From contig JBDHHQ010000003.1 in the NCBI GenBank assembly GCA_039589315.1, positions 96,001 to 160,000 of the forward strand: a stretch of 64,000 nucleotides of DNA. Reading direction: 5' to 3'. This document shows positions 23,663-42,801 of the stretch, piece by piece. The notes below the pieces were generated by a model, which saw nothing but the letters and a program-made list of their open reading frames with translations, had not been told where the DNA came from and ran no database searches. The translations under genes and the position numbers were made by a program. The stretch is from Gemmatimonadota bacterium. Lineage in GTDB: Bacteria > Gemmatimonadota > Gemmatimonadetes > Longimicrobiales > Gaopeijiaceae. Position 1 is the stretch's first letter; every line of letters starts with the position of its first letter.

Positions 23663-23791
23663 GTCGTCTCGGATCCGACCCACGTCGTCGGTGCCGGGCG
23701 ACGTGCCGACCACGTCGCGAACGGCAGCCGCGCGCCCGTGTTTCAGCCTCGCCCAAGAGGGCCATGCGGGAACCCGGCGGGTACATCCGAG

Positions 23792-26290
23792 ATGAGCGCA
23801 GACCTTCGAGGGAGAGCCCCCGTGGCCGAATCCAACGATACCGGGGACCGGGGGGCGGCCGAGAACGCCCTGTCCGGGTCCCCCACACCGCGCCGCGCAG
23901 ACGACCCCGAAGCCCGAGCGCTCCGGGGGGGCGCGGAATCCGCGGCTGGGAGCGAGGGCGATGGGGCGCCTTCGCCCAGGCTACGCACCGACTTCGTGCG
24001 TGCCCAGGTCGAGGAGGACAACCGCACGGGCCTGTATGGTGGGAGGGTGCATACGCGGTTCCCGCCGGAGCCCAACGGATTCCTCCACATCGGTCACTCC
24101 AAGTCGATCTGCCTGAACTTCGGGATCGCGGAAGAGTACGGGGGCGCCTGCAATCTCCGCTTCGACGACACGAACCCGGAGACCGAGGACATGGCCTACG
24201 TCCGGGCCGCGGAGAAGGACATCCGCTGGCTGGGGTTCGAGTGGGACGGCCTCTTCTTCGCCAGCGACTACTTCGAGCAGCTCTACGACTTCGCCGAGAC
24301 GCTGATCCGCAAAGGCAAGGCCTACGTCGACAGCCTGACGGAGGAGGAAATCCGGGAACACCGCGGGACGGTGACGGAGCCGGGCCGTCCGAGTCCGTAC
24401 CGGGATCGCTCGGTGGAGGAGAACCTGGACCTGTTCCGGCGCATGCGGGCCGGTGAGTACGAGGACGGAGCCCACGTGCTCCGGGCCAAGATCGACATGG
24501 CCTCGCCCAACATGATCATGCGCGACCCGGTGCTGTACCGGATCCGTCACGCGAGTCACTACCGGACCGCCGACGAGTGGTGCATCTACCCGCTCTACGA
24601 CTTCACCCACTGCCTCTCCGACGCCCTGGAAGACATCACCCACTCGGTGTGCACGCTCGAGTTCGAGAACAACCGGGAGCTGTACGACTGGGTGCTGGAC
24701 GAAGTGGGGTACACGGACCCCCGCCCCCATCAGTACGAGTTCAACCGGCTGAACCTGGACTACACCGTCACGAGCAAGCGCAAGCTCATTCCGCTGGTCG
24801 AGGAAGGGCGCGTCAGCGGTTGGGACGATCCGCGGATGTCCACCCTGGCCGCGTTTCGGCGGCGCGGGGTCACGCCTGAGGCCATCCGGGCGTTTTGCGA
24901 CATGATCGGCGTCGTCAAGAGCGACAGCCGTGAGGATCTGGCCAAGCTGGAGTACGCCATCCGCGACGATCTCAACCGGAAGGCCCCCCGCGTCATGGGC
25001 GTGCTCGAGCCGCTGCGCGTGGTCGTCACGACCTTCCCCGATGAAGAGACCGACTGGCTGGATGCGCCGTACTATCCCCGCGACGTACCGCTCGAGGGGT
25101 CCAGGAAGGTGCCGTTCACCCGGGAGATCCTCATCGAACGGTCGGACTTCCAGGAGGATCCTCCCAAGGGATGGCGCCGTCTGGCACCGGGGTGGGAGGT
25201 GCGCCTTCGATACGGGTACGTCATCGAGTGCGAAGAAGTCGTGAAGGACGACAGTGGCCGCGTCGTGGAGCTCCGCTGCTCGCACGACCCGGGGAGTCGG
25301 GGCGGCAGCGCGCCTGACGGGCGCAAGATCAAGGGAACGATCCACTGGGTGTCCGCCGACCACGCCCTCCCCGCCGAAGTGAGGCTCTACGACCGGCTGT
25401 TCACCGAGCCGGATCCCCAGGCGGGCCCCGAGGGCACCGACCTCAGCGACTTCGTGAACCCCGAGTCCCTGGTGGTGGCGGCAGGCGCCCGGCTGGAGCC
25501 GAGCATTGCCGAAGACGATCCGGATACCCGGTACCAGTTCGAGCGTTTGGGCTACTTCTGGCGAGACCCAGTGGACTCGACGGCCGACGCTCTCGTGTTC
25601 AATCGGATCGTTACGCTGCGCGATACGTGGGCCAAGCGGGCCACCCAGGTACCGGAGCCCACCGCCCCGACGAAGCGGACGGAGGGCGGTACCGCACCAC
25701 GGACCGAGGCGGGCGCTTCCCGACGGCCGTCGCCTCCGACCCTGGGGCCAGAGGGACAGGCCCGCTTCGACAGATTCAGGGGCGAGCTCGGCGTCTCCCA
25801 CGACGATGCCCGCGGCCTGGCGGCCAACCCCGTCCTTTCGCGCTATCTCGACGAGGCGGTGGACGCCGGGGCCCCGGCCCCCGCCGCGGCGAGGTGGCTG
25901 GTGAACGAGCTTCTACGGGAAGCCAAGGACACGCCCCTCGAATCGTTGCCGGTGAGCGGGGTGAACGTGGCCGAGCTGCTCTCGCTCGTGGCCGATGGCA
26001 CCCTGTCCGTGGGTATCGCCCGAGAGGTGTTCGCCGACATGGTCGGAGGCGGCGGACGCCCGTTCGATATCGTGGAGCGGCGAGGCCTGCGCCAGATTTC
26101 CGACGACGACGCCCTGTCTCCCCTCATCGCCACGGTCGTGGACGAGCACCCCGACGAGGTCCGACGCTACCGGGAAGGCAAGTCGGCCCTGCTGGGGTTT
26201 TTCGTGGGCAAGGTCATGCGAGGCTCCGGTGGCAAGGCCAACCCCGAGCGCGTGCGGGCTCTGCTCGCGCGGGCGCTGGAGGAGGTCTAG
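23792..26290 (+). CDS. glnS: Glutamine--tRNA ligase with C-terminal GatB/YqeY domain
   Basis: TRFPPEPNGFLHIGH, LRFDDTNP, TSKRK, FERLGYF; C-terminal ..LLGFFVGKVMRGSGGKANP YqeY domain. Start uncertain. Confidence 0.95.
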   Translation: MSADLRGRAPVAESNDTGDRGAAENALSGSPTPRRADDPEARALRGGAESAAGSEGDGAPSPRLRTDFVRAQVEEDNRTGLYGGRVHTRFPPEPNGFLHIGHSKSICLNFGIAEEYGGACNLRFDDTNPETEDMAYVRAAEKDIRWLGFEWDGLFFASDYFEQLYDFAETLIRKGKAYVDSLTEEEIREHRGTVTEPGRPSPYRDRSVEENLDLFRRMRAGEYEDGAHVLRAKIDMASPNMIMRDPVLYRIRHASHYRTADEWCIYPLYDFTHCLSDALEDITHSVCTLEFENNRELYDWVLDEVGYTDPRPHQYEFNRLNLDYTVTSKRKLIPLVEEGRVSGWDDPRMSTLAAFRRRGVTPEAIRAFCDMIGVVKSDSREDLAKLEYAIRDDLNRKAPRVMGVLEPLRVVVTTFPDEETDWLDAPYYPRDVPLEGSRKVPFTREILIERSDFQEDPPKGWRRLAPGWEVRLRYGYVIECEEVVKDDSGRVVELRCSHDPGSRGGSAPDGRKIKGTIHWVSADHALPAEVRLYDRLFTEPDPQAGPEGTDLSDFVNPESLVVAAGARLEPSIAEDDPDTRYQFERLGYFWRDPVDSTADALVFNRIVTLRDTWAKRATQVPEPTAPTKRTEGGTAPRTEAGASRRPSPPTLGPEGQARFDRFRGELGVSHDDARGLAANPVLSRYLDEAVDAGAPAPAAARWLVNELLREAKDTPLESLPVSGVNVAELLSLVADGTLSVGIAREVFADMVGGGGRPFDIVERRGLRQISDDDALSPLIATVVDEHPDEVRRYREGKSALLGFFVGKVMRGSGGKANPERVRALLARALEEV

Positions 26291-27460: not shown

Positions 27461-28576
27461 ATGACATCGAGAGCCACGACCTTCGAGGGCGCCCACCCGA
27501 CGCGGTACTGGCATCGTCTCGACGACGGGCGCACCGAGTGCGACCTCTGCCCTCGAACATGCCGGCTCCGGGAGGGACAGCGCGGACTGTGCTTCGTACG
27601 TGCCTGCCAAGACGGACGGATCGTCCTCACCACGTACGGTCGATCCAGCGGGTTCTGCGTCGATCCCATCGAGAAGAAGCCGCTGAGCCACTTCTTGCCG
27701 GGGACGCCTGTGCTGTCCTTCGGCACGGCAGGCTGCAACCTCCAGTGCGCATTCTGCCAGAACTGGTCCATCTCCAAGTCGCGGGACGTGGACACGCTGG
27801 CCGACCGTGCGCTACCCGAGACGGTGGCCAGAGCCGCGGCCGAGCTCGGCTGCCGGAGCGTCGCCTACACCTACAACGACCCGATCATCTTCCACGAGTA
27901 CGCCATCGACGTGGCGAGGGCCTGCCGGGAGCGGGGCGTCCAGTCGGTGGCGGTGACCGCAGGATACGTGAATCCGAAGCCCAGAGCCGAGTTCTACCGA
28001 TACATGGACGGGGTCAACGTCGACCTGAAGGCCTTTTCCGAAGACTTCTATCGCAGGATCTGCAAGGGCCGCCTCGCTCCGGTCCTCGAAACGCTCCGGT
28101 ACCTCAAGCACGAGACGGCGGTCTGGCTGGAGATCACCAACCTCGTGATCCCGGGCGAGAACGACGAGGACGACGAATTCGACGCCATGAGCCGGTGGGT
28201 CGTGGCGGAGCTCGGCCCTGACGTGCCCCTGCACTTCACCGCGTTCCACCCCGACTTTCGCATGCTCGACCACCCCCGCACCCCACCGGCCACCCTCATG
28301 CGGGCACGGCAGATCGCCCTGGCGAACGGCGTCCGCCATGCCTACACGGGCAACGTCCGCGACCCGGACGGCCAGAGCACGTTCTGCCACGTCTGCGGTC
28401 AGGTCCTCATCGGCCGAGACGGCTACCGGATTTCCGAGTGGAATCTGTACGGTGAGGGGGCGTGTCGCGGCTGCGGCACGGCGTGTGCGGGCGTCTTCGA
28501 AGGCGCTCCGGGAGAGTGGGGAGCGAGGCGGCTGCCGGTGTGGCTAGCGAGCTTCCGAAGGGAATCGTCGGCGTAG
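27461..28576 (+). CDS. amrS: AmmeMemoRadiSam-system radical SAM enzyme
   Basis: CDLCPRTC, DPIEKKPL.HF.PG, GCNLQCAFCQNW, LHFTAFHPD, YTGNV, C-terminal CxxC pairs. Confidence 0.9.
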   Translation: MTSRATTFEGAHPTRYWHRLDDGRTECDLCPRTCRLREGQRGLCFVRACQDGRIVLTTYGRSSGFCVDPIEKKPLSHFLPGTPVLSFGTAGCNLQCAFCQNWSISKSRDVDTLADRALPETVARAAAELGCRSVAYTYNDPIIFHEYAIDVARACRERGVQSVAVTAGYVNPKPRAEFYRYMDGVNVDLKAFSEDFYRRICKGRLAPVLETLRYLKHETAVWLEITNLVIPGENDEDDEFDAMSRWVVAELGPDVPLHFTAFHPDFRMLDHPRTPPATLMRARQIALANGVRHAYTGNVRDPDGQSTFCHVCGQVLIGRDGYRISEWNLYGEGACRGCGTACAGVFEGAPGEWGARRLPVWLASFRRESSA

Positions 28577-28607
28577 GGCTCGCCGGAGGATCGTCCGCAG
28601 CGGCGAT

Positions 28608-29228
28608 TCATGTCCTGCTCTTTTGTCGAGACGCACGCGCCCCCCCGAACACCCGCGTCACCACCGCCCGCATCCGCGCCGTGTGCGAGCCCTCCCAGTA
28701 GATCCGTTCGCACTCGGGGCATTGAACGAAGGAGGCTTCCCGTTCGAGAACCCTCGCGGGCACCCTTCGCTCCACGGCCTCCGGGTCGGCCCGCACGAGA
28801 ACGCCATTGCACACGCGGCACCGGGTGAAGAGGCGAACGGGCGCCTCCAGGCCGAACGCGGCCGCCACCTCGACGAGTTGATCGAGCGGCTTGTCGGCCT
28901 CGACAACCAGGCACCCCTCGACCCGCCATTCCTCCGGGAGCTTCCGGTCCCGGGTCAGGATGTACCGCCCCTCCACCAGCGCCCGCCTCACGAGCTCGGC
29001 GTCTGGGATCCGGTCGTCGTAGGCCGTGTCGAACCCCAGCGTCCGCAGCCAGCGAGCCAGACGGCCGAGCATGGCGTCGGCGAAGAAACGAGGTCGGTCC
29101 GCGGTGATGGGCGGACCCAGACGTTGCTCCAGACCCACCCGGGCGCCGCACGTGCATTGGATCGTACGGCCGAACTGGAACAGGGTGACGTCGTACTGGC
29201 GGCCGCAGCCGGAACACCGAATGGCCAT
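28608..29228 (-). CDS. Mut7-C (PIN-fold) RNase domain protein with an extra N-terminal zinc ribbon
   Basis: RFFADAMLGRLARWLR..GFD, LTRDR, RCRVCN..CPEC.RIYWEGSH; N-terminal CSGC..CTCG. Confidence 0.88.
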   Translation of the reverse strand: MAIRCSGCGRQYDVTLFQFGRTIQCTCGARVGLEQRLGPPITADRPRFFADAMLGRLARWLRTLGFDTAYDDRIPDAELVRRALVEGRYILTRDRKLPEEWRVEGCLVVEADKPLDQLVEVAAAFGLEAPVRLFTRCRVCNGVLVRADPEAVERRVPARVLEREASFVQCPECERIYWEGSHTARMRAVVTRVFGGARASRQKSRT

Positions 29229-29626
29229 GACGGTGGGTCTCAGGAGGAGCCGTGGCGCAGGGAAGGCGTGTGGGCCCCGGGGCCCATGGCCCTGCCCGCC
29301 ACGTAGCAATAGCCTCGGCCGGCCCGCCGGTCCAACGCTCCTGGTGACCCACGCGGCCGGCCGGCCCGGCGCCGACTCCGCGACCGTCGTGCCCGACCGT
29401 CGCGAGCGCGAGCTCGATCGGCACGCCGAGCCCGGCGGCGTCTCGAGGGGGCTGGACGTCCCACGCGCTCCGCCTTGCCGGCGCCCGAGCGTCACCCTAG
29501 GCTGCCGTCCGGGAACCGGAGCCGAGAGCTCCAGGTCCACGGAAGGCCCGGATAGCTGGTCCCGAGCCGGCCCCGCGTGCATCGGGCCGCGGGCGCATGA
29601 TTCCACGAAAAGCCGAATTCGCGCAT

Positions 29627-30262
29627 ATGAGGATCGCAGTGCTTGGCGCCGGAAACGTCGGTGGCACACTCGGCCGGGCGTGGCTGGGCGCCGGTCACGA
29701 GGTCGTCTTCGGCGTGCGCGACGCCGGCAGCGTGAAGGAGAAGGCCCTCGCGGCAGAGACGGGAGCGGTGGTCGTGGGCTTGGCCGAGGCGGTGGAGGGA
29801 GCGGACGTCGTGGTCCTCGCGATTCCCTTCCGGGCGGTGGGCGGTGTGCTCGAGAAGACCGGTCCGCTGCACGGGAAGGTCGTGGTCGACACCACGAACC
29901 ACCTCGACTGGACCTACGGCCTTCGTGTGGCCACGGAGCGGTCCGCGGCCGAGGAGATCCAGGACATGATCCCCACGGCCAGGATCGTGAAGGCGTTCAA
30001 CACGATCGGCCACGAGCACATGGCCGACCCCCTGTTCGGTGACGTACCGGCGGACATGTTCGTGTGCGGGAACGACGAGGCGGCCCGATCGCGGGTCATG
30101 GGATTGGCCCAGGACATCGGCTTCGAGCCCGTGGACGCCGGAGGACTGAGCCATGCTCGGGCCCTGGAGCACCTTGCTGTGCTCTGGATCTTCCTCTCCA
30201 CGTCCGGTGCCCAAGGCCGCGACATCGCCTTCAAGCTGTTGCGGACGAAGGCATCGCCGTGA
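29627..30262 (+). CDS. NADPH-dependent F420 reductase-like dinucleotide-binding protein (NpdG family)
   Basis: IAVLGAGNVG, VVDTTN, VKAFNT, CGND..A, GFEPVDAG.L..AR.LE. Confidence 0.85.
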   Translation: MRIAVLGAGNVGGTLGRAWLGAGHEVVFGVRDAGSVKEKALAAETGAVVVGLAEAVEGADVVVLAIPFRAVGGVLEKTGPLHGKVVVDTTNHLDWTYGLRVATERSAAEEIQDMIPTARIVKAFNTIGHEHMADPLFGDVPADMFVCGNDEAARSRVMGLAQDIGFEPVDAGGLSHARALEHLAVLWIFLSTSGAQGRDIAFKLLRTKASP

Positions 30263-30311
30263 CTCATCCCGCGACCCGCGCACGCGGGTGACGAGGCACT
30301 GACCAACGAGC

Positions 30312-31505
30312 ATGCTGCTGCCCACGCCCTTCCACTCTCGGACTTCCGCCCTTTGTAGGAGCGCCAGGTGGCGCAACTGGTCGGGCTACGCGTCGGTCGT
30401 CGCGTACGAAGCGACGCACGAGTACGAGTACTACGCGGTGCGCAACGGGTCGGCGCTCTTCGACGTGTCGCCGCTCCGCAAGTACGAGATCGGCGGACCG
30501 GACGCCGCCCTACTGGTGAGCCGGATAATCACGCGGGACCCGACCCGGTGTCGAGTGGGGCAGGTGCTCTACACCACCTGGTGCGATGAAGCCGGGAAGA
30601 TGATCGACGACGGCACCGTCCAGCGATTGGAGCCGGACCTGTTCCGGATCACCTCCGCCGACCCGAATCTCCGGTGGTTCCAGGACTGCGGTCTCGGGAT
30701 GGACGCCACCACTCGGGACGTCACCGTGGATCTGGCGGCCCTGGCGCTGCAAGGCCCGACCTCCCGGGAGATCCTGAAGAGCCTGGTCACGGGAGTGGAC
30801 CTCGACGCCCTCCGCTTCTTCCACCTGGCAGACGGGACCGTCGGGCAGATCCCCGTTACCGTGTCCCGGACCGGCTACACCGGCGATCTGGGCTACGAGC
30901 TATGGGTCGCGCCGACCCACGCCGAGGCGCTTTGGGACGCCCTGATGGAGGCGGGGCGCGGTTACGGGATCGCCCCGGCCGGGCTGGACGCGCTGGACAT
31001 CGCCCGCATCGAAGCGGCGCTGATCCTCAAGGAGGTCGACTACGTCTCCACCACGACAGCGTTGATCGAATCGAGGAAGTCCTCACCCTTCGAAGCCGGC
31101 CTGGGGTGGACAGTGCAGCCCGGCGGGAGAGCGGGCTTCGTCGGCGCACGGGCGCTACGGGCCGAGGCGGAGAGCCCCTCGAGGTGGGCCCTGGCCGGTA
31201 TCGAGGTGGATTGGCCGGCCATCGAGAAGTTGTTCAATGCGGTCAACTTGCCTCCGCTCGTAGCCGGTGCGGCGTCTCGCGCCGCCGTACCGCTGTACGG
31301 CCGGGGACGGCAGATCGGCTACGCCACCAGCTCGACGTTTTCGCCCATCCTCAAACGGTACGTCGCGCTGGCAACGATCGAGCGCGACTTCGCCACACCG
31401 GGCTCGCGCATCGACTTCGAGCTCACGGTGGAGTTCGCACGCCACAAGGTGCCGGCCCGCGTCGTCGACACTCCCTTCTTCGATCCCGAGCGGAAGCGAG
31501 CGTAG
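30312..31505 (+). CDS. GcvT-family folate-binding aminomethyltransferase-like protein
   Basis: TPFH, FDVSP, IDDGTV, LQGP, SRTGYTGDLGYE, RIEA, PFFDP. Confidence 0.9.
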   Translation: MLLPTPFHSRTSALCRSARWRNWSGYASVVAYEATHEYEYYAVRNGSALFDVSPLRKYEIGGPDAALLVSRIITRDPTRCRVGQVLYTTWCDEAGKMIDDGTVQRLEPDLFRITSADPNLRWFQDCGLGMDATTRDVTVDLAALALQGPTSREILKSLVTGVDLDALRFFHLADGTVGQIPVTVSRTGYTGDLGYELWVAPTHAEALWDALMEAGRGYGIAPAGLDALDIARIEAALILKEVDYVSTTTALIESRKSSPFEAGLGWTVQPGGRAGFVGARALRAEAESPSRWALAGIEVDWPAIEKLFNAVNLPPLVAGAASRAAVPLYGRGRQIGYATSSTFSPILKRYVALATIERDFATPGSRIDFELTVEFARHKVPARVVDTPFFDPERKRA

Positions 31506-31507
31506 CC

Positions 31508-33115
31508 GTGGCCCACAGGTATGACGCCATCGTGATCGGGGCCGGACACAACGGGCTGGTGCACGCGGCGTATCTGGCCCGGGCAGGACTCGACGTGCTG
31601 GTGCTGGAGCGCCGCCACCTCGTGGGGGGCGCCACCGTCACCGAGGAGCTGTTTCCCGGCTTCAAGTACAGCGTGTACTCCTACGTGGTCAGCCTGATGC
31701 GGCCGGACATCATTCGGGAGCTCGACCTCCCTCGGCACGGGCTCACCATCCTTCCCCTGGAGAGCACGCTGACGCCGCTGCCGGACGGCGACTGCCTGTA
31801 CCGCGACGCCGACCGCTACCGCACGTGGCGCGATATCGCTCGCTTCTCGGTGCGCGACGCGGAGGCGTACGAGGAGTACGGCCGGACCCTCTTCTTCATG
31901 GCTCGGGCCGTCAAGTACCTGCTGGGGATCGCGCCCCCTGATCCGACCCGGGTCCGCCCGAAAGACCTGTCGGGGATGCTGGGCCTCGCGAGGCACATGC
32001 TGGGTCTGCGCAAGGACGAGCTCCACGCGCTGGTCAAGCTCATGACCATGAGCGCAGCCGACTTCCTGGACGAGTGGTTCGAGACCGACGTGCTCAAGGC
32101 CACCCTGTCGGCCAGCGGCATCATCGGCACGTTCCTGGGACCCCGGTCCCCGGGGACGGCCTACGTGCTCCTTCACCACTACATGGGCGAGATCGACGGG
32201 CATTTTCGGGCGTGGGGCTTCGCCAAGGGCGGAACGGGCGCACTGGCGAATGCCGTGGCGGGAGCCGCCCGTGAGCTGGGTGTGGAGGTGCGCACGGACT
32301 CACCCGTAGCCCACGTGGTGGTACGGAACGGCCGCGCCACGGGCGTGGCTCTGGAGAACGGCGACGTGCTCGAGGCGAAGATCGTCTCCTCGAGCCTCGA
32401 TCCCCGGCAGACCTTCCTGAGGCTGTTGGACGCCTCCGTGCTCCCTGACGAACTGGTGACCGCCGTCGGCAAGTTCAAGTTCCGGGGCTCGTCGGGGAAG
32501 GTGAACCTGGCTTTGGACGCGGCGCCGGACCTGGCCTGCCTGCCCGGCCACGGTCCGCATCTTCGGGGCGCCATCTCCATCAGCCCCTCCGTCGATTACC
32601 TGGAGCGGGCCTACGACGACGCCAAGTACGGTGACTTTTCCCGCGCGCCCTACATGGACGTCATCATCCCGTCGATGATCGACCCGGAGATGGCTCCCCC
32701 CGGCAAGCACGTCATGTCGTGCTTCGTGCAGTACGCGCCCTACGAGCTGCGCGAGGGAACCTGGGAAGAGAAACGAGAGGCGTTCGGCGACACGGTGATC
32801 GATACGCTGTCCCGCTACATGCCGAAGCTGAAGGAGATCATCCTGCATCGTCAGGTGGTGACGCCCTGGGACATCGAGCAGACGGTGGGTCTCTCGCAAG
32901 GCAACATCTTCCAGGGCGAGCTGAGCCTGTCGCAGCTCTTCTTCCTGCGACCCGCCCCGGGCCACGCCGAGTATCGGACGCCGGTGCGCGGCTACTACCA
33001 ATGCGGCTCGGGCACCCACCCCGGGGGCGGCATCATGGGGGCGCCGGGGCGCCTCTCGGCCACCGCTGTACTCAGGGACCTGCGCCGGCCAGGGGGCCGC
33101 AAAGGCCAGACGTGA
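31508..33115 (+). CDS. PYROXD2 / phytoene-desaturase-like FAD oxidoreductase (paralogue A)
   Basis: YDAIVIGAGHNGL, VLERR..GGA, APPGKH, GNIFQGE, CGSGTHPGGG; GTG start 2 nt after the previous stop. Confidence 0.9.
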   Translation: MAHRYDAIVIGAGHNGLVHAAYLARAGLDVLVLERRHLVGGATVTEELFPGFKYSVYSYVVSLMRPDIIRELDLPRHGLTILPLESTLTPLPDGDCLYRDADRYRTWRDIARFSVRDAEAYEEYGRTLFFMARAVKYLLGIAPPDPTRVRPKDLSGMLGLARHMLGLRKDELHALVKLMTMSAADFLDEWFETDVLKATLSASGIIGTFLGPRSPGTAYVLLHHYMGEIDGHFRAWGFAKGGTGALANAVAGAARELGVEVRTDSPVAHVVVRNGRATGVALENGDVLEAKIVSSSLDPRQTFLRLLDASVLPDELVTAVGKFKFRGSSGKVNLALDAAPDLACLPGHGPHLRGAISISPSVDYLERAYDDAKYGDFSRAPYMDVIIPSMIDPEMAPPGKHVMSCFVQYAPYELREGTWEEKREAFGDTVIDTLSRYMPKLKEIILHRQVVTPWDIEQTVGLSQGNIFQGELSLSQLFFLRPAPGHAEYRTPVRGYYQCGSGTHPGGGIMGAPGRLSATAVLRDLRRPGGRKGQT

Positions 33116-33119
33116 GCCC

Positions 33120-34688
33120 ATGAGCCTGGACACGATCGTCATCGGCGCGGGGCACAACGGGCTCGTCGCGGCTGCCTATCTGGCCAGGGCCGGCCAGAAG
33201 GTCCTCGTCCTCGAGCGGCGTGACGTGCTCGGTGGCGCGGCAGCCACCGAAGCGCTCTTCCCCGGCTACCGCGTCAACACGGGCGCCCCGGACGCCGGAC
33301 TGTTCCTGCCGCGGATCGTGGATGAGTTGAAGCTGCAGGCGCGCGGGCTGGAGCTGATCGAGAGCCCCGCGGCCGTCTGCGCGCTCCAGCCCGGAGGGCG
33401 GGCGCTGACGCTCTGGCGCGACGTCGCCAGGAGCCGCGACGAGATCGCCGCCTGGTCGCCCCGGGATGCAGAACGGTATCCCGACTTCGTGGACTACATG
33501 GGCCGGATGGCGAGCGCCCTCCGCGGCACGAGCACCCTGACGCCCCCGGATCCGCACGACGGATCGGCGCGGGAGCTCCTCGGCTGGCTAAGGCCGGCTC
33601 TGCGACTCAAGGGAATGGGCCGGCGGGACATGATGGAGTTCCTTCGCATCCTGCCCATGTCCGCGGCCGAGCTGCTCGGCGACTGGTTCGAGAACGATGC
33701 GTTGAAGGGGGCGCTGGGCACCAGCGCGGTCCTGGGCAGCATGCAGGGCCCCCAGGCGTCCGGCACCGCGTTCCGGTTGCTGTACCACTACCAGGGGGCG
33801 GAGAACGGTGGCTTCCGCTCGTCCGCCTTCGTCCGAGGCGGGATGGGCCGCCTTGCGGAGGCACTCGCCGCCGCCGCACGCGAGCACGGCGCGGAGATTC
33901 GATCCGGAGCGAGCGTCGCTCGCGTGCTGGTGGAAGGCGACACGGCCGTCGGCGTGCGGCTCGAAACCGGGGACGAGCTCGCCGCGCGCCGCGTGGTTTC
34001 GTGCGTCGACCCCCGTCGAACCCTGCACGGGCTCCTCGGCGCTCCCGCCCTCGGACCGGAGCTCAACCGTAGAGTCGGCAACATCCGCTACCGGGGAAGC
34101 ACGGCGGTCCTGCACCTGGCGTTGGACGGCCTCCCGAGCGTCCCCGGCGTGACCGGTGTGGAGCCGATCACCGCGCACATCGTCGTGAGTCCCAGCCTGG
34201 TCGATCTGGAACGGGCGTACGATGACGCCAAGTACGGGCGCTTCTCGGCCCGCCCGTGCCTCGACATGGTGATCCACACGCTTCTGGATCCCGCGCTGGC
34301 GCCGCCCGGCCGCCACACGATGTCCGCGACCGTGCGGTACGCCCCCTACGATTTGAGGGACGCGGGGTGGGACGAGCAGCGAGGCCGGTTGGCGGATACG
34401 ATCCTTGGACTCCTCGACGAGTACGTCCCCGAGGTGCGCCCCCGTATCCTGCACCAGCGCCTCCTCACGCCCCTCGACTGGGAGCGAGAGTACGGGTTGA
34501 CCGAGGGAGGTACCTACCACGGCCAGATGGACCTGGACCAGCTCCTGTTCATGCGACCCGTGCCCGGCTGGGGGCGGTACCGGACTCCGGTGGCCGGGCT
34601 CTACCTGTGTGGATCGGGGACGCACCCCGGAGGCGGGGTGACGGGAGCTCCGGGCTTCAACGCGGCTCGGGAGGTGTTGCGCGACTGA
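33120..34688 (+). CDS. PYROXD2 / phytoene-desaturase-like FAD oxidoreductase (paralogue B)
   Basis: IVIGAGHNGL, YDDAKYG, APPGRH, CGSGTHPGGGVTGAPG. Confidence 0.9.
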   Translation: MSLDTIVIGAGHNGLVAAAYLARAGQKVLVLERRDVLGGAAATEALFPGYRVNTGAPDAGLFLPRIVDELKLQARGLELIESPAAVCALQPGGRALTLWRDVARSRDEIAAWSPRDAERYPDFVDYMGRMASALRGTSTLTPPDPHDGSARELLGWLRPALRLKGMGRRDMMEFLRILPMSAAELLGDWFENDALKGALGTSAVLGSMQGPQASGTAFRLLYHYQGAENGGFRSSAFVRGGMGRLAEALAAAAREHGAEIRSGASVARVLVEGDTAVGVRLETGDELAARRVVSCVDPRRTLHGLLGAPALGPELNRRVGNIRYRGSTAVLHLALDGLPSVPGVTGVEPITAHIVVSPSLVDLERAYDDAKYGRFSARPCLDMVIHTLLDPALAPPGRHTMSATVRYAPYDLRDAGWDEQRGRLADTILGLLDEYVPEVRPRILHQRLLTPLDWEREYGLTEGGTYHGQMDLDQLLFMRPVPGWGRYRTPVAGLYLCGSGTHPGGGVTGAPGFNAAREVLRD

Positions 34689-34861
34689 GGACACCAACCC
34701 GCCCCCTGTCGCCCGGCACGGCACGAGGCAGCACGTGCAGTCCCCCCGCTTCGTCCGTATTGTCGGATCCGCAGCATCACGCTGCTTCGTCCGTCGCCAG
34801 GCAGGACTCCACCGTAACGAATCCAACAGGTGCAACCAGCGGGTCTGAAGAGGAGATCACC

Positions 34862-36013
34862 ATGACAGCAGCCTTCGACATGTCGTCGATCCAGCGGGGC
34901 GCGAGACTCCGGAGATCACCGTACTTCGAGGCGACGCAGCGGCACGGCTGCCTCGCGTACACGGTGTACAATCACATGTTCTTGCCCACGCGCTACGACG
35001 ACCTCGAGGCGGAGTACGAGAAGCTCCTGCAGGACGTCACCGTCTGGGACGTGAGCGTGGAGCGTCAAGTGGAGATCACCGGTCCCGACGCGTTCGCCTT
35101 CACCAACCAGCTCACGCCTCGGGACCTTGGGAAATGTGAGGTCGGTCAGGGCAAATACGTGATCCTCACGGCGGAGGACGGCGGCATCGTCAACGACCCC
35201 GTGCTGCTCCGTCTGGGAGAGAATCACTTCTGGCTCGCGCTCGCCGACAGCGACGTGCTGCTGTGGGCGAAGGGGGTCGCGCTGAACTCGGGACTCGACG
35301 TGGACATCGGGGAGCCCGACGTCTCACCGATGCAGATTCAAGGACCCAAGTCCAAGCAGGTCGTCGCGAAGCTGTTCGGGCAGGACGTGTTGGATCTGCG
35401 GTACTACTACTTCCTCGAAACGGATCTGGACGGGATTCCGGTCGTGGTCACCCGCACCGGCTGGAGCGGTGAGGTCGGGTACGAGATCTACCTGCGCGAC
35501 GGCAGCCGGGGCGTGGAGCTGTGGGAGAGGGTCATGGACGCTGGGCGGGAGCACGGCATCGCGCCCACCGGACCTTCGGACATCCGGCGCATCGAGGCGG
35601 GCATCCTGAACTTCGGCATCGACATCACCCTGGACACCAACCCGTTCGAGGTCGGCCTCGGCTGGCAGGTGGAGCTCGAACAGGAGGCGTCGTTCATCGG
35701 TCGCGCAGCGTTGGAGCGGATCAAGGCCGAGGGGCCGTTGCGCCGGCTGGCCGGCATCGAGATCGACGGTGAGCGCCTCGACCTCAACACGACGCGGTGG
35801 CCCGTCCAGGTGGACGAACGCGACGTGGGCTTCGTCACTTCGGCGGTGTACTCGCCGCGGCTCGGGAAGAACATCGGCTACGCCATGCTGCCGGCCGATC
35901 GGGCCGCCCTGGGCACCCGCCTGACCGTTCGCGTCCCGGACGCGGGCGACCGGTCGGCCACGGTCGTGGCCCGGCCGTTCGTCGATCCCGGAAAGGAGAT
36001 CCCGAAGTCGTAA
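34862..36013 (+). CDS. DmdA-like (GcvT family) THF-dependent demethylase
   Basis: RLRRSPY, YTVYNHMFLP, WDVSVERQVEI, NDPVLL, ADSDVL closely follow the DmdA pattern; GAGGAG RBS. Confidence 0.85.
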   Translation: MTAAFDMSSIQRGARLRRSPYFEATQRHGCLAYTVYNHMFLPTRYDDLEAEYEKLLQDVTVWDVSVERQVEITGPDAFAFTNQLTPRDLGKCEVGQGKYVILTAEDGGIVNDPVLLRLGENHFWLALADSDVLLWAKGVALNSGLDVDIGEPDVSPMQIQGPKSKQVVAKLFGQDVLDLRYYYFLETDLDGIPVVVTRTGWSGEVGYEIYLRDGSRGVELWERVMDAGREHGIAPTGPSDIRRIEAGILNFGIDITLDTNPFEVGLGWQVELEQEASFIGRAALERIKAEGPLRRLAGIEIDGERLDLNTTRWPVQVDERDVGFVTSAVYSPRLGKNIGYAMLPADRAALGTRLTVRVPDAGDRSATVVARPFVDPGKEIPKS

Positions 36014-36017
36014 CGGG

Positions 36018-37262
36018 CTACCGGCCCAGGAATCTCAGGCCGAGAGCGGCGGCGAGGCCCAGGCCCACCACCAGACCGGCGATCTGGAGCGCTCGCTGTC
36101 GCACGCGGCCGGAGCCCGCAGACTCGTCCGAAGCGGCCTCCGTTCTCCGGATCCCCGTTCGGGTCAGGTCGTACACCCACGCCAGGACAAGGGCGATCGG
36201 GAAGCCCGCCAGAGCCACCCACACGAGCCCGTCGAACGCCCAGTCCGGGAAAGGCAAGGAGTCCCAGACGATGCCGGCGCCCTCCAAGGTTACGAACGCC
36301 AGCCCCAGGTACGCCACCGCCACCTGGTACACCCGTCGCCGGCGCAGCTCCCACAGGAACCCCGCCACCGTGCCGGTAGGCTTGGCCGCCAGGTCCCGGT
36401 CTGTTCGTTCGCCGCGGAGCCGGCGGGCCACCGTCGACGCCGAGGGTCGGCGCTCCGCCGCCTTCGAGAGGCACGCCTCCACGATGTCGGCCATGTCGTT
36501 GGGCACGCCGGGGCGGAGCGCGGCGAGAGACGCCGCGGGTGTCCGCAGATGCGCGCTCACGAGCTGTACGCCGGAAAGACCCGGGTAGGGACCGTCTCCG
36601 GTGATGAGCTCGTACGCCATGATGCCCAGGGCGTAGACGTCGCTCTCCTCGACCGCGGACTCACCGCGCAGCTCCTCGGGGCTGAGGTGCCGCGGATCCC
36701 CCAGTAGCTCACCGGCGCGGGTCAGGCGCGTCACGGCGGCCCCGCTGTGGACCATAACCGCCGCGAGTCCGAAGTCGGTCAGCACGACCCGGCCGGTCCC
36801 CCGCTCCCGGATCACGTTGCCCGGCCGCACGTCCCGGTGCACGATCCCCTTGGCGTGCGCCGCCTCCAGGGCGGAGGCCACCTGCTCCAACACGTCCCGG
36901 GCAGCGACCGGGTCCATGGGGCCGGCCATCTCCAGCTCCTGGGCCAGCGTGTGCCCCTCGATGTACTCCATGACCAGATACGGCACGCCGTCGGACAGCG
37001 CGCCCACGCGGTGGACGCCCGCTACGTTTCGGTGTTGGATGCGTGCCGAGGACCGGCCCTCTCGCTCGAACCGTTTGCGCGCCACTTCCTCGGCGGCGAG
37101 GGACGGCAGCAGCACCTTGATGGCGACGGCCCGCTGGAGGGCACGCTCCCGGGCCAGATACACGCTGGCTTGATCGCCTTCGCCCAGAATCCTCTCGATG
37201 TCGAACTCGGCACCGAGCTCCTGGGTCAGGCGTTCGTCGAGCGGTGATGGGCTATCGGTCAT
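36018..37262 (-). CDS. Hanks-type Ser/Thr protein kinase with C-terminal TM helices
   Basis: VAIKVL, HRDVRPGN, TDFGLA, SPE, SDVYALG; C-terminal ELRRRRVYQVAVAY.. TM segment. Confidence 0.9.
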   Translation of the reverse strand: MTDSPSPLDERLTQELGAEFDIERILGEGDQASVYLARERALQRAVAIKVLLPSLAAEEVARKRFEREGRSSARIQHRNVAGVHRVGALSDGVPYLVMEYIEGHTLAQELEMAGPMDPVAARDVLEQVASALEAAHAKGIVHRDVRPGNVIRERGTGRVVLTDFGLAAVMVHSGAAVTRLTRAGELLGDPRHLSPEELRGESAVEESDVYALGIMAYELITGDGPYPGLSGVQLVSAHLRTPAASLAALRPGVPNDMADIVEACLSKAAERRPSASTVARRLRGERTDRDLAAKPTGTVAGFLWELRRRRVYQVAVAYLGLAFVTLEGAGIVWDSLPFPDWAFDGLVWVALAGFPIALVLAWVYDLTRTGIRRTEAASDESAGSGRVRQRALQIAGLVVGLGLAAALGLRFLGR

Positions 37263-37314
37263 GGCGCCTCGGGGGCCGGGGACGGAGGGAACTTGCCGAT
37301 CCTGCCCGCCACGT

Positions 37315-37869
37315 TCAAGAGCGGGCCACGGGCGAGCGACGGACAGGCCCCAGGTATCGGTCGAGCCAGTCCAGCGTCTCACGGACGATGCCCGTGCCCT
37401 GCGGGACGTGTCCCCCGTTGAACAGCACGTGCCTCTTGTCCTCGGCGGGTGTGCCCAGCATGTCGCACAGCGGCTTCTGTCCGGTCTCGACGGGCAGCGC
37501 GTAGTCTCCTCGGCCATTGATCATCAACACGGGTGTCGTGACCCGGGGCTCGTAGTTCCAGGGTACGACGAAGGGCTGCTCGTGCTGCATGTGCGTCGCG
37601 TCGTACCCACCCCCCACCCAGACCGCGGCCTTGAATCGTCGCTCGATGGCCAGCCTGTAGGAACCGTGTTCGGAGCCGGCGCTGAGCCCGAGGCAGGCCA
37701 GCCGCTCCCCGTCGATGTCGTCACGCTCCATCAGGTGGTCCACCGTCCGGCTCAGATCCTGGTTGTGCCGGATCTTCCTTTGCCTCCGCTCAGCAGGTCC
37801 CCGGGAGCCCATCCCTCCCCCGCCGAGCTTCACGAGGATCTCGTAGTGGGAGACGGTTTGGCCAATCAT
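37315..37869 (-). pseudogene. Internally deleted remnant of a kinase...alpha/beta-hydrolase multidomain gene
   Basis: First ~21 aa (MIGQTVSHYEILVKLGGGGMG) are a kinase N-terminus, joined to a hydrolase C-terminus (GLSAG, PVLMING..D, GGH, LDWLDRYLGPV). Confidence 0.72.
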
Positions 37870-39104: not shown

Positions 39105-40127
39105 ATGCGATCCGCACCGATTGGCCTGGCGTTCGTCACCCTCGTCCTGAGCGCTTGCGCACCGGACGACACCACGCCGCCTGCCACCACGGAAGCGGCG
39201 GCTCCTGCGGCGGTCCCCGACCCCGACGTGGTCATCGGCGCCGACCAGACCCACAACCGGTTCAGCGCAAGGGTCCCGCCGGTGGCGACCGTCGCTTCGG
39301 GAGCCGTGGTCGAGGTCCACACGAAAGAGGCCACGGACGGACAGTTCGACCCGACGTCCACGGCCGACGACGTGGCGACGCTCGACTTCGGCCCCATCCA
39401 CCCGCTGACCGGCCCGGTGTACGTCGAAGGCGCCGAGCCGGGCGACGTCCTCGCCGTGACCCTCCTGGAGATCGAGGTGGGACCCTGGGGCTGGGCGGCC
39501 ATCGCACCCGGTTTCGGCTTCCTCGCCGACCAGTTCACCGAACCCTGGCTCAGGACGTTCGAGATCCCGAAGGGCGCCACGGAGGTGCGGTTCAACGAAC
39601 GGATCCGGATCCCGCTGGCGCCGTTCCCCGGCGTGATGGGCGTGGCCCCGGCCACCGACTCGCTCCTCTCCACGATTCCGCCCCGGGCCAACGGTGGAAA
39701 CATGGACAACCGACACATGACGGCGGGCACCACGGTCTACTTCCCGGTCTTCGTGGAGGGGGCGCTATTCTCGGTGGGCGACACCCATGCCGCCCAGGGC
39801 GACGGGGAGGTGTCGGGCACCGCCATCGAGGCGCCCATGCGGATCCGGTACAGGGTGGAGCTGGTCAAGGGGGGCCGGCCCATCCAGGAGCCACAATACG
39901 AGACGGCGGACTTCTATGCGGTAACCGGCTTCGCCACCACGCTCGACGAGGCGGCGAGGAAGGCGGCGCTGTACATGATCGACTACCTGACGGCAGAGCA
40001 CGGCCTGACCCCGGAGGAGGCCTACGTTCTCGCCTCCCTCGCCGCCGATCTGAAGATCTCCGAGGTCGTCGATGTCCCCCACGTGCTCGTGAGCATGCAC
40101 ATGCCGAAGGCCGTGCTGGGTACCTGA
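39105..40127 (+). CDS. Acetamidase/formamidase family lipoprotein
   Basis: Lipobox LSAC; HPLTGPVYVEGAEPGD, GGNMD, GDTHAAQGDGE. Confidence 0.9.
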   Translation: MRSAPIGLAFVTLVLSACAPDDTTPPATTEAAAPAAVPDPDVVIGADQTHNRFSARVPPVATVASGAVVEVHTKEATDGQFDPTSTADDVATLDFGPIHPLTGPVYVEGAEPGDVLAVTLLEIEVGPWGWAAIAPGFGFLADQFTEPWLRTFEIPKGATEVRFNERIRIPLAPFPGVMGVAPATDSLLSTIPPRANGGNMDNRHMTAGTTVYFPVFVEGALFSVGDTHAAQGDGEVSGTAIEAPMRIRYRVELVKGGRPIQEPQYETADFYAVTGFATTLDEAARKAALYMIDYLTAEHGLTPEEAYVLASLAADLKISEVVDVPHVLVSMHMPKAVLGT

Positions 40128-40926: not shown

Positions 40927-42801
40927 CTACCACGCGATGCCGTAGTCGTCACCGTGGTGGCTCGAGCCGCCCCAGAAGCTCCCATGCTCCCAGTCGAAGA
41001 ATAGGGCGTTGATGGGGCCGGAGGTTCGCTCCCGGAAGGTCAGGTCGTAGCCCATGGCCCCGAGCTCCTTCACGACCCAGGGTGGCGTCTGCTCCTGCAC
41101 CAGCATCCGGCCGGGGCTGGACTCGTGATCCCCGAACGATCCACGAAGCTGAAAGGTGTTCATGTTGGCCGCTTCCACGGCCTCCTGAACGTTCATGTCG
41201 AACTCGACGACGTTCAGGAAGAACTGCAGCAGGTTCTGGTCCTGCCCGTCGCCGCCCTGGACGGCGAAGGACAGGAAGGGCTTGCCGTCCCTGAGCGCCA
41301 TGCTCGGCGTCAAGGTGGCCCGGGGGCGCTTGCCCGGCTCGATCACGTTGTAGGGGTTCTCACGCTCGTCCAGGACGAAGCTCTGCGCACGTTGACTGAG
41401 ACCCACACCCGTCTCTCCCGCGATCACCGCCGGGATCCACCCACCCGAGGGAGTCACCGAAACCACCCAACCCTCGGTGTCGGCCGCCTGGATGGACGTC
41501 GTGCCGGCGTAGAAGGCGTTCTCGAAGTCCTGCACCTCTTCGGGGCTGGCCTCCGGCGTGACGATGCGGTCCGTGCGCCAACCCTCGAGGAAGCGCTGGA
41601 ACGGGTTCGTCCCGCCCTGGAAGGGGTAGGGATCGCCCGGCCCGATCTCCGGGTCGTTCCGCTCCCAGTCGATCTGCTGGATCCGCAGCTTGGCGTAGTC
41701 CTTCGAGAGGAGGCCCTGGATGGGCTCCTCCGGGGGAAAGTAGGGATCTCCGTAGTAGAAGTCCCGATCCGCGAAGGCCAGGTTCATGACCTGGTAGAGG
41801 GTGTGGAGATAACGCGAACTGTTATACCCCATGCCCTTGAGATCGAAGTTCTCGAGCATGTTCAGAGCCTGGAGCAGAACGGGTCCCTGAACCCAGGTCG
41901 TCAGCTTGTAGACCTCGATGTCCTTGTAGGTCGTCATCACCGGCTCTTCGATGTAGACCTGCCAGTTGTCGAGGTCCTCCATGGTGATCAGGGCGCCGGC
42001 TTCCCGGGCTCCCCGGACGAACGCCTCGGCGATGTCGCCCCGGTAGAAGCGGTCGTAGGCCGCGTAGATGGCCTCCTTCCGGGCTTTGCCCGCCGCCAGC
42101 GCTCGTGCCTCGGCCTCCACTAGGCTCGCGAGCGTTCGGGCCAGGTCGGGCTGCCGGAAGATCTCTCCCTCTCGGGGGCCCGGGTGGTCGGGGTCGTCGG
42201 GGTGCGTGAGATAGACCCTGGCGGAGGTTGGCCACTCCCGGATCTCGTCCGCGCTGCTGTTGATGCGCCGTATGGGATCGGCCTCCATGGGATACCCCTC
42301 GGCCAGCTGGATCGCCGGACCCAGCACGTCGGCGAGGCGCAGCGTCCCGTACTCGGCCAACATGGTCATGAGGCCCCCGGGCGTACCCGGGGTGACGGCC
42401 GACAGGGGACCGGAGCTCGGCGGGTACGCGTGTCCCTTCTCCTCGTAGAAGTCGACTGTGGCACCGCTGGGAGCCACGCCCAGGGCGTTGATGCCGATCA
42501 CCTTCCTCTCGCCCGGGTGGTAGATCAGCGCCTGGGTCTCACCGCCCCAGCTGAGCACGTCCCACATGGTGGCGGTGGCGGCCAGCATGGCAGCGGCCGC
42601 ATCGACGGCGTTGCCGCCCTTCTGAAACATCATGGCTCCGGCCGTGGCGCCGAGGGGCTTGCCGGTGATGGCCATCCAGTGGCTGCCGTGGAGGACGGGC
42701 TTGGCGGTGCGTTGCGCCGCGGCATCGACCGGAACGGCCAGCGTGACCACCGTTGCCAAAACCAGGCCTCCCAGGGCCGCGAGCGGACGAGCGTTGTTCA
42801 T
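40927..42801 (-). CDS. ggt: Gamma-glutamyltransferase, exported
   Basis: GGNAVDAA, GTTSIQAAD Thr nucleophile, PGKRPRATLTP, GGDGQ. Confidence 0.92.
   Translation of the reverse strand: MNNARPLAALGGLVLATVVTLAVPVDAAAQRTAKPVLHGSHWMAITGKPLGATAGAMMFQKGGNAVDAAAAMLAATATMWDVLSWGGETQALIYHPGERKVIGINALGVAPSGATVDFYEEKGHAYPPSSGPLSAVTPGTPGGLMTMLAEYGTLRLADVLGPAIQLAEGYPMEADPIRRINSSADEIREWPTSARVYLTHPDDPDHPGPREGEIFRQPDLARTLASLVEAEARALAAGKARKEAIYAAYDRFYRGDIAEAFVRGAREAGALITMEDLDNWQVYIEEPVMTTYKDIEVYKLTTWVQGPVLLQALNMLENFDLKGMGYNSSRYLHTLYQVMNLAFADRDFYYGDPYFPPEEPIQGLLSKDYAKLRIQQIDWERNDPEIGPGDPYPFQGGTNPFQRFLEGWRTDRIVTPEASPEEVQDFENAFYAGTTSIQAADTEGWVVSVTPSGGWIPAVIAGETGVGLSQRAQSFVLDERENPYNVIEPGKRPRATLTPSMALRDGKPFLSFAVQGGDGQDQNLLQFFLNVVEFDMNVQEAVEAANMNTFQLRGSFGDHESSPGRMLVQEQTPPWVVKELGAMGYDLTFRERTSGPINALFFDWEHGSFWGGSSHHGDDYGIAW

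Follow-up and report, generated by a model that had tools for sequence, protein, structure and literature searches.

Folate-coupled oxidative demethylation is known from dimethylglycine oxidase (DMGO; reference structure 1pj5 in the Protein Data Bank, PDB), the dimethylglycine and sarcosine dehydrogenases (DMGDH and SARDH; 4p9s and 5l46 served as dehydrogenase references) and the SoxAB enzymes (heterotetrameric sarcosine oxidase with SoxA and SoxB; 1vrq and 2gag). In all of them a flavin oxidises an N-methyl group and a GcvT-fold folate domain takes up the one-carbon (C1) unit. Their flavoprotein is of DAO type, either in fusion with the GcvT-like domain or, as SoxB, alongside SoxD and SoxG. 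Here we describe a gene cluster that is predicted to perform the same two tasks with genes of a different make-up. The cluster (positions 29627 to 36013) lies in a 64,000-nucleotide (nt) stretch of DNA from a Gemmatimonadota bacterium (GenBank assembly GCA_039589315.1, contig JBDHHQ010000003.1, positions 96,001 to 160,000, or C3:96001-160000 in our contig numbering), which is called the window. Its core encodes a GcvT-fold protein (G2) and, in separate genes, two paralogous flavoproteins of the CrtI/PYROXD2 type (PF01593; G3 and G4), followed by a second GcvT-fold protein that resembles DmdA (G5). We put at about 55% the probability that G2, G3 and G4 constitute a folate-linked demethylase and that G5 serves in the same pathway. 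The chemistry would be that of DMGO and its kin, carried out in split form by a different flavoprotein family, a proposal that we rate slightly above an even chance.

Other described systems resemble the locus in part. In the glycine betaine pathway (GbcAB-DgcAB-SoxBDAG) and in proline betaine pathways of the Stc2/HpbA type, a Rieske oxygenase takes the first methyl group of a quaternary amine and flavoproteins follow. These later flavoproteins are of old yellow enzyme/iron-sulfur (OYE/FeS) type (DgcA) or DAO type (Sox), whereas the window has no Rieske gene and carries a DmdA-like gene instead. Tdm, the trimethylamine N-oxide (TMAO) demethylase (9q5a), ends in a GcvT-like domain that is the best match of G2 and shares its change to Leu at R223 of E. 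coli GcvT; in Tdm, however, this domain is fused to a catalytic DUF1989 metal domain, while G2 stands alone and partners flavoproteins. DmdA provides the best-matching model for G5, which aligns with 3tfh and keeps the Trp discussed below, but the clade of G5 falls under the cut-off of that model, is tied to the flavoprotein/GcvT trio and alternates with a quaternary-amine-type Rieske gene. To our knowledge, neither such linkage nor such alternation has been known for DmdA. PYROXD2, a eukaryotic mitochondrial protein, is homologous to G3 and G4 over their full length; the eukaryotic proteins met here differ in having no GcvT partner, and two carry a GFA domain. CrtI-type carotenoid desaturases share their fold with G3, but the family cut-offs are missed and the window holds no phytoene synthase. 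GcvT itself differs in that G2 and G5 score below the gcvT cut-offs, lack R223 and do not stand beside gcvH. In the literature searched, whose coverage excluded subscription journals, we found no description of the trio or of the PYROXD2 reaction; DmdA, GcvT and phytoene are all absent from PMC12478193.

The five genes, in a window of about 69% G+C, are as follows (NADP, nicotinamide adenine dinucleotide phosphate; FAD, flavin adenine dinucleotide):

G1: 29597 (or 29627)..30262, + strand, NADP-binding F420_oxidored/NpdG-like protein.
G2: 30312..31505, + strand, GcvT-fold folate-binding protein (GCV_T + GCV_T_C).
G3 (PyrA): 31508..33115, + strand, GTG start, CrtI-fold, PYROXD2-like FAD protein.
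G4 (PyrB): 33120..34688, + strand, fast-evolving paralog of G3, Amino_oxidase/CrtI-like.
G5: 34862..36013, + strand, DmdA-like GcvT-fold protein (GCV_T + GCV_T_C).

All stand head to tail, with intergenic gaps of 49, 2, 4 and 173 nt from G1 to G5. The open reading frame coordinates thus confirm the layout given in the original prediction, made from the letters of the window. Its picture of two paralogous CrtI-like flavoproteins between two different GcvT-fold proteins is borne out by the 46% identity of G3 and G4 and by the domain matches. It had also stated that crtB, crtE, gcvH and gcvP are missing from the window. This holds for crtB and gcvH, as the genes of the phytoene/squalene-synthase (SQS_PSY) family are confined to contigs C24 and C113, and gcvH lies on contig C5; crtE and gcvP were not searched for. 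The genome has four GCV_T genes, namely G2, G5, one on contig C5 and the canonical gcvT (329 bits) at C3:32360-33109, outside the window; none of the four is fused to a flavoprotein, and neither soxD nor soxG is present with G2-G4.

The trio G2-G3-G4 is conserved well beyond this genome. A scan with G3 over one genome per species gave 577 relatives, of which the best 80 loci, 64-85% identical to G3, were kept; counts among them come from local tblastn with the five window proteins. These loci span at least six phyla (Gemmatimonadota, Chloroflexota, Myxococcota/Deltaproteobacteria, Binatota, Thermodesulfobacteriota, Acidobacteriota and Eisenbacteria). A G2 homolog adjoins G3 in 78 of the 80, and the arrangement is therefore beyond chance; of the other two loci, L073 begins at a contig end and L040 has other genes there. 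The G2 homolog is divergently oriented in the delta/Binatia group. The second flavoprotein gene (B, with G3 and its orthologs as A) comes after G3 in 71 of the 80 loci. Four of the nine without it are cut by a contig end, and five, all from Chloroflexota (L018, L023, L031, L067, L077), have DNA at this place but no B.

The same genes also travel on plasmids. Searching plasmids with G3 by tblastn returned 53 records, the seven best of which (49-53% identity) each matched in two places. All four of the alphaproteobacterial plasmids that were opened (Rhizobium sp. SL42, Parasedimentitalea marina, Fuscovulum ytuae and Shinella zoogloeoides) have the order A-B-T, with an 'aminomethyltransferase family protein' last, against T-A-B here. 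Single-copy G3 homologs of lower identity in Sphingobium (42%) and Rhizobium CIAT894 (37%) have no GcvT neighbour. The neighbourhood check on the pairing of GcvT-like with tandem PYROXD2-like genes thus came out in its favour, in 78 of 80 loci and four of four plasmids, with changes of order. Because the three genes have been kept through changed order, changed orientation and many phyla, there is strong evidence that they work together, and we are highly confident that G2-G4 form one functional module. One in-frame fusion of a GcvT and a flavoprotein was found (P0127). A second candidate, P0128, was rejected as it reads like a frameshift artefact through residues 260-410, and the tandem A-B fusions P0121-P0126 (one contig each) were not used since they may be gene-call read-through across the 4-nt gap. 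Two proteins, mutually 50% identical, have a glutathione-dependent formaldehyde-activating (GFA) domain ahead of the PYROXD2-like domain.

G3 and G4 match Amino_oxidase (PF01593) with 68 and 90.1 bits, and G3 has its GxGxxG motif at residues 11-16. With the carotenoid family model crtI_fam (TIGR02734) they score 120.1 and 150.8 bits, below its cut-off of 238.1, and the CrtO model gives 292 bits against a cut-off of 1000. Their DAO matches are confined mostly to the dinucleotide-binding region at the N-terminus, spanning residues 6-43 of G3 and 4-111 of G4. Databases label the relatives of G3 'phytoene dehydrogenase-like protein' or 'NAD(P)/FAD-dependent oxidoreductase'. For the AlphaFold2 (AF2) model of G3 (predicted local distance difference test, pLDDT, 84.7; predicted template-modelling score, pTM, 0.88), the best Foldseek matches are CrtD 4rep (E 1.8e-24, TM 0.76/0.82), CrtI 4dgk (5.9e-22) and 3ka7; further down, the ranked matches include nicotine oxidoreductase, 6-hydroxynicotine oxidase, putrescine oxidase and monoamine oxidases.

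The two paralogs evolve at different rates. Mean column identity is 76% among G3 orthologs (70 rows) versus 53% among G4 orthologs (51 rows), and end branches measure 0.02-0.39 in A rows and 0.10-0.93 in B rows of a quick tree of 59 rows, which gives support as Shimodaira-Hasegawa-like approximate likelihood ratio (SH-aLRT) values alone, with no bootstrap, and whose root is uncertain. The B paralogs form one clade (24 rows, SH-aLRT 99) that includes the alphaproteobacterial B genes, and the duplication is therefore older than the spread of the module. In A (support 98) and again in B (99), the Longimicrobiales copies and those of two Anaerolineales loci are each other's sisters (the window, L005 and L008 with L013 and L014), which suggests that the A+B gene pair was transferred between phyla as a unit. 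The five A-only Chloroflexota loci argue against an obligate A-B heterodimer, the form in which the pair had been imagined, and together with the fast evolution of B they favour separate or accessory roles for it. We propose that G4 either catalyses a second step or acts as a partner subunit.

When longer proteins were searched, eukaryotic sequences annotated as PYROXD2 were recovered, with 35-42% identity and coverage of 97-98%. One of them, the oomycete protein P0129 (PYROXD2 in NCBI/UniRef), shares 42% identity with G3 over the full length of G3 (560 columns, E 5e-142) and 33% with G4. G3 is accordingly a close PYROXD2 homolog, orthology being more than the quick tree establishes. Human genetics associates PYROXD2 with methylated amines. 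One study (PMC8109053) reports that a PYROXD2 missense variant accounts for up to 50% of the variance in plasma N6-methyllysine, and that the locus is also associated with N6,N6-dimethyllysine and N-methylpipecolate. Another (PMC3169529) associates the locus with urinary trimethylamine and plasma dimethylamine and reports that lower PYROXD2 expression accompanies higher trimethylamine levels.

The GcvT-like partner, G2, matches GCV_T with 206.3 bits and GCV_T_C with 50.7 bits. Its best match is the GcvT-like C-terminal domain of TMAO demethylase (288 bits with the NCBIfam model; 8e-57 to PDB 9q5a), followed by T-proteins, dimethylglycine oxidase and SoxA; among PDB entries, the GcvT-like domains of the folate-coupled demethylases DMGO, SoxA and DMGDH match it at 1e-22 to 1e-31. 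Both GcvT-fold proteins of the cluster miss the cut-off of the gcvT model TIGR00528 (235.85), with 143.7 bits for G2 and 174.8 for G5. In the alignment with E. coli GcvT, R223 is replaced by Leu in G2 and by Ser in G5. G2 and all four GcvT-like proteins from other copies of the trio that were aligned keep Glu195, have Leu at Arg223 and a variable residue at Tyr101 (Gln in G2). Dimethylglycine oxidase, which has Phe in the R223 column, has been deposited in the further entries 1pj6 and 1pj7, which we take to be its folate complexes; the enzyme binds folate. The missing Arg marks G2, by its sequence, as something other than a T-protein; inability to bind folate does not follow from it. G2 resembles the GcvT-like domains of C1-releasing enzymes more closely than it does true T-proteins. 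TMAO demethylase itself has the changes R223L and Y101F, and THF (tetrahydrofolate) still lowers its release of formaldehyde, according to PMC12560246.

A complex of G3 and G2, predicted with separate alignments for the two proteins, reached a median score of 0.50 (runs 0.47, 0.70 and 0.50), against 0.12 for the best of three controls; the runs share at least 80% of contacts, and the partner pLDDT is at least 89. In calibration, 116 of 157 solved complexes and two of 215 mismatched pairs attained the mark used, and scores of 0.60 or less comprise only 18 of the 157 solved complexes and both of the passing mismatches. The prediction lends weak support to a G2-G3 complex.

What this window adds to the trio is its DmdA-like partner. 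The best model for G5 is DmdA NF009133, at 392.5 bits, 17.5 below the equivalog cut-off of 410. Six relatives of G5 score 381.9-405.6, so that seven of seven clade members lie under 410. G5 matches PDB entry 3tfh (annotated 'GcvT-like Aminomethyltransferase protein') at 7.6e-83 over 340 residues; we take the chain to be DmdA of Pelagibacter ubique. Within this alignment RTGWSGEVGYEIY of G5 aligns to RSGWSKQGGYEVY of 3tfh. G5 keeps the Trp of the SGW motif (RTGWSGE) and the downstream GYE residues, including the folate-binding Glu/Tyr, while G2 has Tyr at the position of this Trp. According to PMC7487153, the Trp is key for the interaction of DmdA with dimethylsulfoniopropionate (DMSP), and the roles of the folate-binding Glu/Tyr are described there too; the mapping of its numbering onto RTGWSGE is our own, from the 3tfh alignment. 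Such a Trp would suit any onium group. In the closest relative of the window, L005, the DmdA-like gene (L005:10387-11535) is in three pieces with two stops in the tblastn range, beside an intact trio; it is either a pseudogene or the product of assembly indel errors.

The claim that the DmdA-like gene is linked to the module gained from searches across the phylum. In 201 genomes, at thresholds of E<=1e-120 for G3, E<=1e-90 for G5 and E<=1e-80 for the Rieske gene described below, G3 was found in 97 and G5 in 36, and all 36 genomes with G5 also carry G3. The Rieske gene was found in 58, of which 56 are G3-positive. The 97 G3-positive genomes divide into 32 with G5 only, 52 with the Rieske gene only, four with both and nine with neither; the 104 G3-negative genomes include none with G5 and two with the Rieske gene. 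G5 and the Rieske gene are thus nearly exclusive, both occurring in only four of the 88 G3-positive genomes that have either. Two unpublished genomes, G182 and G057, each with G3 and the Rieske gene, are counted here; when they are left out, G3 is found in 95 of 199 and the Rieske gene in 56 of 199, with 50 having the Rieske gene only. Of the 23 genomes in the family to which the window belongs, 13 carry G3, those 13 are also the ones with G5, and the Rieske gene is absent from all 23; within one genus of this family (g3) six genomes have both G3 and G5 while four have neither. Across these related genomes, which are not independent of one another, the pattern of G5, G3 and the Rieske gene is suggestive rather than statistical.

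Physical linkage of G5 varies. G5 occurs in eight of the 80 loci (L004-L010 and L012), none of them from other phyla. It follows G4 in the same direction in the window, L005 and L007-L010. L012 and L006 also have it downstream in the same orientation, in L006 at a distance of about 3 kb, and in L004 it is divergent and about 1 kb away. In two genomes of another family (G093, G134) G5 is divergent from G2 across 113 and 260 nt.

The Rieske oxygenase gene with which G5 alternates is present in 21 of the 80 loci (19 from Gemmatimonadota, one from a metagenome-assembled genome of Terriglobales, one from Anaerolineaceae), immediately downstream of the trio in most of them. The genome of the window, 95% complete, yielded no GbcA-like gene. 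The best NCBIfam model for the Rieske protein is GbcA (139-248 bits against a cut-off of 670), and its best PDB matches are 4qup/3vca at about 1e-54, entries that we take to represent the stachydrine demethylase Stc2, and the carnitine monooxygenase CntA at 1.6e-41. By these matches the Rieske partner of the trio falls in a clade that acts on quaternary amines.

Further neighbours recur. A pyridoxal phosphate (PLP)-dependent decarboxylase follows in nine of the 80 loci. Four loci (L023, L031, L067, L077), all of the single-flavoprotein kind, have folD two genes further downstream. In the plasmid loci a TetR regulator gene is divergently oriented, and there are also between one and three GbcA-like Rieske genes, a class-III aminotransferase and a PotF-like ATP-binding cassette (ABC) transporter/binding protein; in Fuscovulum every gene from the aminotransferase to the transporter overlaps the next. 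On two alphaproteobacterial plasmids (L087:13633-15669 and L085:15325-17364) the trio adjoins a 679-residue OYE/FeS flavoprotein, presumably of the fold of dimethylglycine or trimethylamine demethylase-type enzymes. An APC amino-acid permease stands beside the trio in two Gemmatimonadota genomes with a divergent DmdA-like gene (L091:2282-3760 and L092:2225-3592). Downstream in L092 there is also a creatininase-family gene. A class-V PLP enzyme of SufS/EgtE/PvdN-like type overlaps the start of G5 in L093 (4394-5770), follows G5 in L004 (1433-2638) and precedes G2 in L006 (4474-5727). The window's genome has a 68% identical SufS/EgtE-like copy on another contig (C26:12651-13958), where the context gave only a TonB-dependent receptor. 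Neighbours of this kind go with the catabolism of amines or betaines, not with the making of carotenoids. An amino-acid-like or polyamine-like substrate is suggested by the PotF-like binding protein, APC permeases, class-III aminotransferases, PLP decarboxylase and SufS/EgtE-like PLP enzymes.

From the observed linkage, co-occurrence, folds and family relations we infer every chemical step of the following scheme, in which G2-G3-G4 would be a split, folate-coupled oxidative demethylase. An onium substrate, either a quaternary ammonium betaine or a sulfonium, would give its first methyl group to THF through G5; in other lineages a GbcA/Stc2-like Rieske monooxygenase would take over this step by hydroxylation. 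G3 and G4 would then oxidise the remaining N-methyl groups of the resulting tertiary or secondary amine to the iminium in a second and third step, and G2 would move the iminium or formaldehyde carbon onto THF as 5,10-methylene-THF, so that no formaldehyde escapes. On comparative evidence, the demethylation reading of the original prediction is partly supported. A more specific version is tentative and we hold it to be rather doubtful: that the clade of G5 is a betaine:THF methyltransferase and not a DMSP demethylase, an O2-independent, non-homologous replacement of the Rieske enzyme, so that all methyl groups of a betaine pass to folate, with the PYROXD2 type as a second, independent family of N-methyl oxidases.

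Several observations weigh against the folate-linked demethylase with G5 in its pathway. G2 is without two residues by which E. coli GcvT contacts THF (R223 and Y101), and the authors of PMC12560246 consider the use of THF by TMAO demethylase possibly vestigial. All the fusions come from single contigs. The genomes compared are kin, and the co-occurrence counts overstate their independence; families f1 and f7 are each uniform, all of their G3-positive genomes having G5 and none the Rieske gene, and in f7 (genomes G058, G082, G100, G196) G5 and the trio lie hundreds of kb apart. The near-cut-off DmdA score and the kept Trp mean that G5 may be an ordinary DMSP demethylase. Finally, in the quick tree, whose root is uncertain, the four eukaryotic rows fall in neither the A nor the B clade but together with the single-copy homolog from Sphingobium (SH-aLRT 97). 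Because eukaryotic PYROXD2 groups with single-copy, GcvT-less bacterial homologs, transfer of function to it is less direct; the bacterial handle on PYROXD2 that had been announced holds as regards the 42% full-length identity and is loosened by this grouping.

Some of these points feed other explanations. Two pathways could lie side by side, the trio demethylating an amine and G5 acting independently as a demethylase of DMSP or another compound, with folate C1, habitat and regulation in common. This would fit the 173-nt spacing ahead of G5, wider than any other in the cluster, as well as the unlinked G5 of the four f7 genomes and the lack of G5 in loci from other phyla among the 80. We nevertheless consider it unlikely, as all 36 genomes with G5 carry G3, the two co-vary within genus g3 (six both, four neither), two independent adjacent arrangements exist, and G5 and the Rieske gene coincide in just four of 88 genomes. 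The substrate might instead be a sulfonium that is demethylated twice, for example DMSP or S-methylmethionine: G5 would be a DMSP demethylase yielding methylmercaptopropionate, and the flavoproteins would oxidise the S-methyl thioether and hand formaldehyde to G2. FAD-dependent thioether oxidases exist as precedent. Such a route would account for the closeness of G5 to 3tfh (7.6e-83), its 392.5 of 410 bits and the retained DMSP-key Trp, for the SufS/EgtE-like PLP enzyme near G5 or the trio in L093, L004 and L006 (a fold used by C-S lyases), and for the APC permease beside the trio in L091 and L092. Elsewhere, however, the partners are GbcA/Stc2/CntA-like Rieske enzymes, PotF-like proteins and class-III aminotransferases, all of which point to nitrogen, and the human PYROXD2 associations concern N-methyl compounds, which leaves the sulfur route quite improbable.

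Alternatively, the flavoproteins might not be demethylases at all but desaturate, isomerise or reduce a lipid or isoprenoid-like molecule, as CrtI, CrtISO and RetSat do, or oxidise a C-N bond other than an N-methyl one, with a different role for the GcvT-like protein. Carotenoid desaturases are indeed the nearest folds and sequences (4rep, 4dgk; 292 bits with the CrtO model), and the two missing THF contacts of G2 would fit. Against this, the carotenoid models score far below their cut-offs (292 versus 1000; 120-151 versus 238), no gene of the phytoene-synthase family lies in the window, the conserved partner has the GcvT fold, the recurrent neighbours are amine-catabolic and GFA-domain fusions exist; we regard such a function as very improbable.

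If the folate-linked demethylase is real, folate-coupled N-demethylation was built at least twice, from different flavoprotein families, and about half of the sampled Gemmatimonadota (97 of 201), together with members of several other phyla, possess a so far unrecognised pathway for methylated nitrogen compounds. For PYROXD2, an orphan protein of human mitochondria, there would be a concrete reaction to test. The alternation of the DmdA-like and Rieske genes points to a possible new class of substrates for DmdA-type enzymes, which matters for metagenomic dmdA-like genes read as markers of DMSP turnover.

G1, which the original prediction had counted as a member of the system, does not share in this conservation: the 80 related loci yielded no homolog of it, either at E<=1e-8 and a coverage of 50% or more, or at 1e-20. 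It matches Pfam PF03807 with 66.4 bits and NpdG TIGR01915 with 105.5 bits, below the cut-off of 149.8, and is probably a bystander, an adjoining gene outside the system. On both sides the cluster is flanked by unrelated genes:

Mut7-C protein: 28608..29669, opposite strand to the cluster.
Ser/Thr kinase: 36018..37517, opposite strand to the cluster.

A promoter and terminator scan of 29300-36300 gave a single promoter-like site, which lies on the wrong strand, and not one terminator, a result not above shuffles, and Rfam over 28500-36500 gave a chance microRNA match alone (E 0.26). A few kb downstream of the cluster lie a formamidase/acetamidase-family gene (39105-40127) and a gamma-glutamyltranspeptidase (GGT) gene (40927-42801); a GGT fragment lies upstream of the trio in L005. 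Elsewhere in the window, 23738-26290 encodes a class-I Glu/Gln-tRNA synthetase with a C-terminal GatB/YqeY domain.

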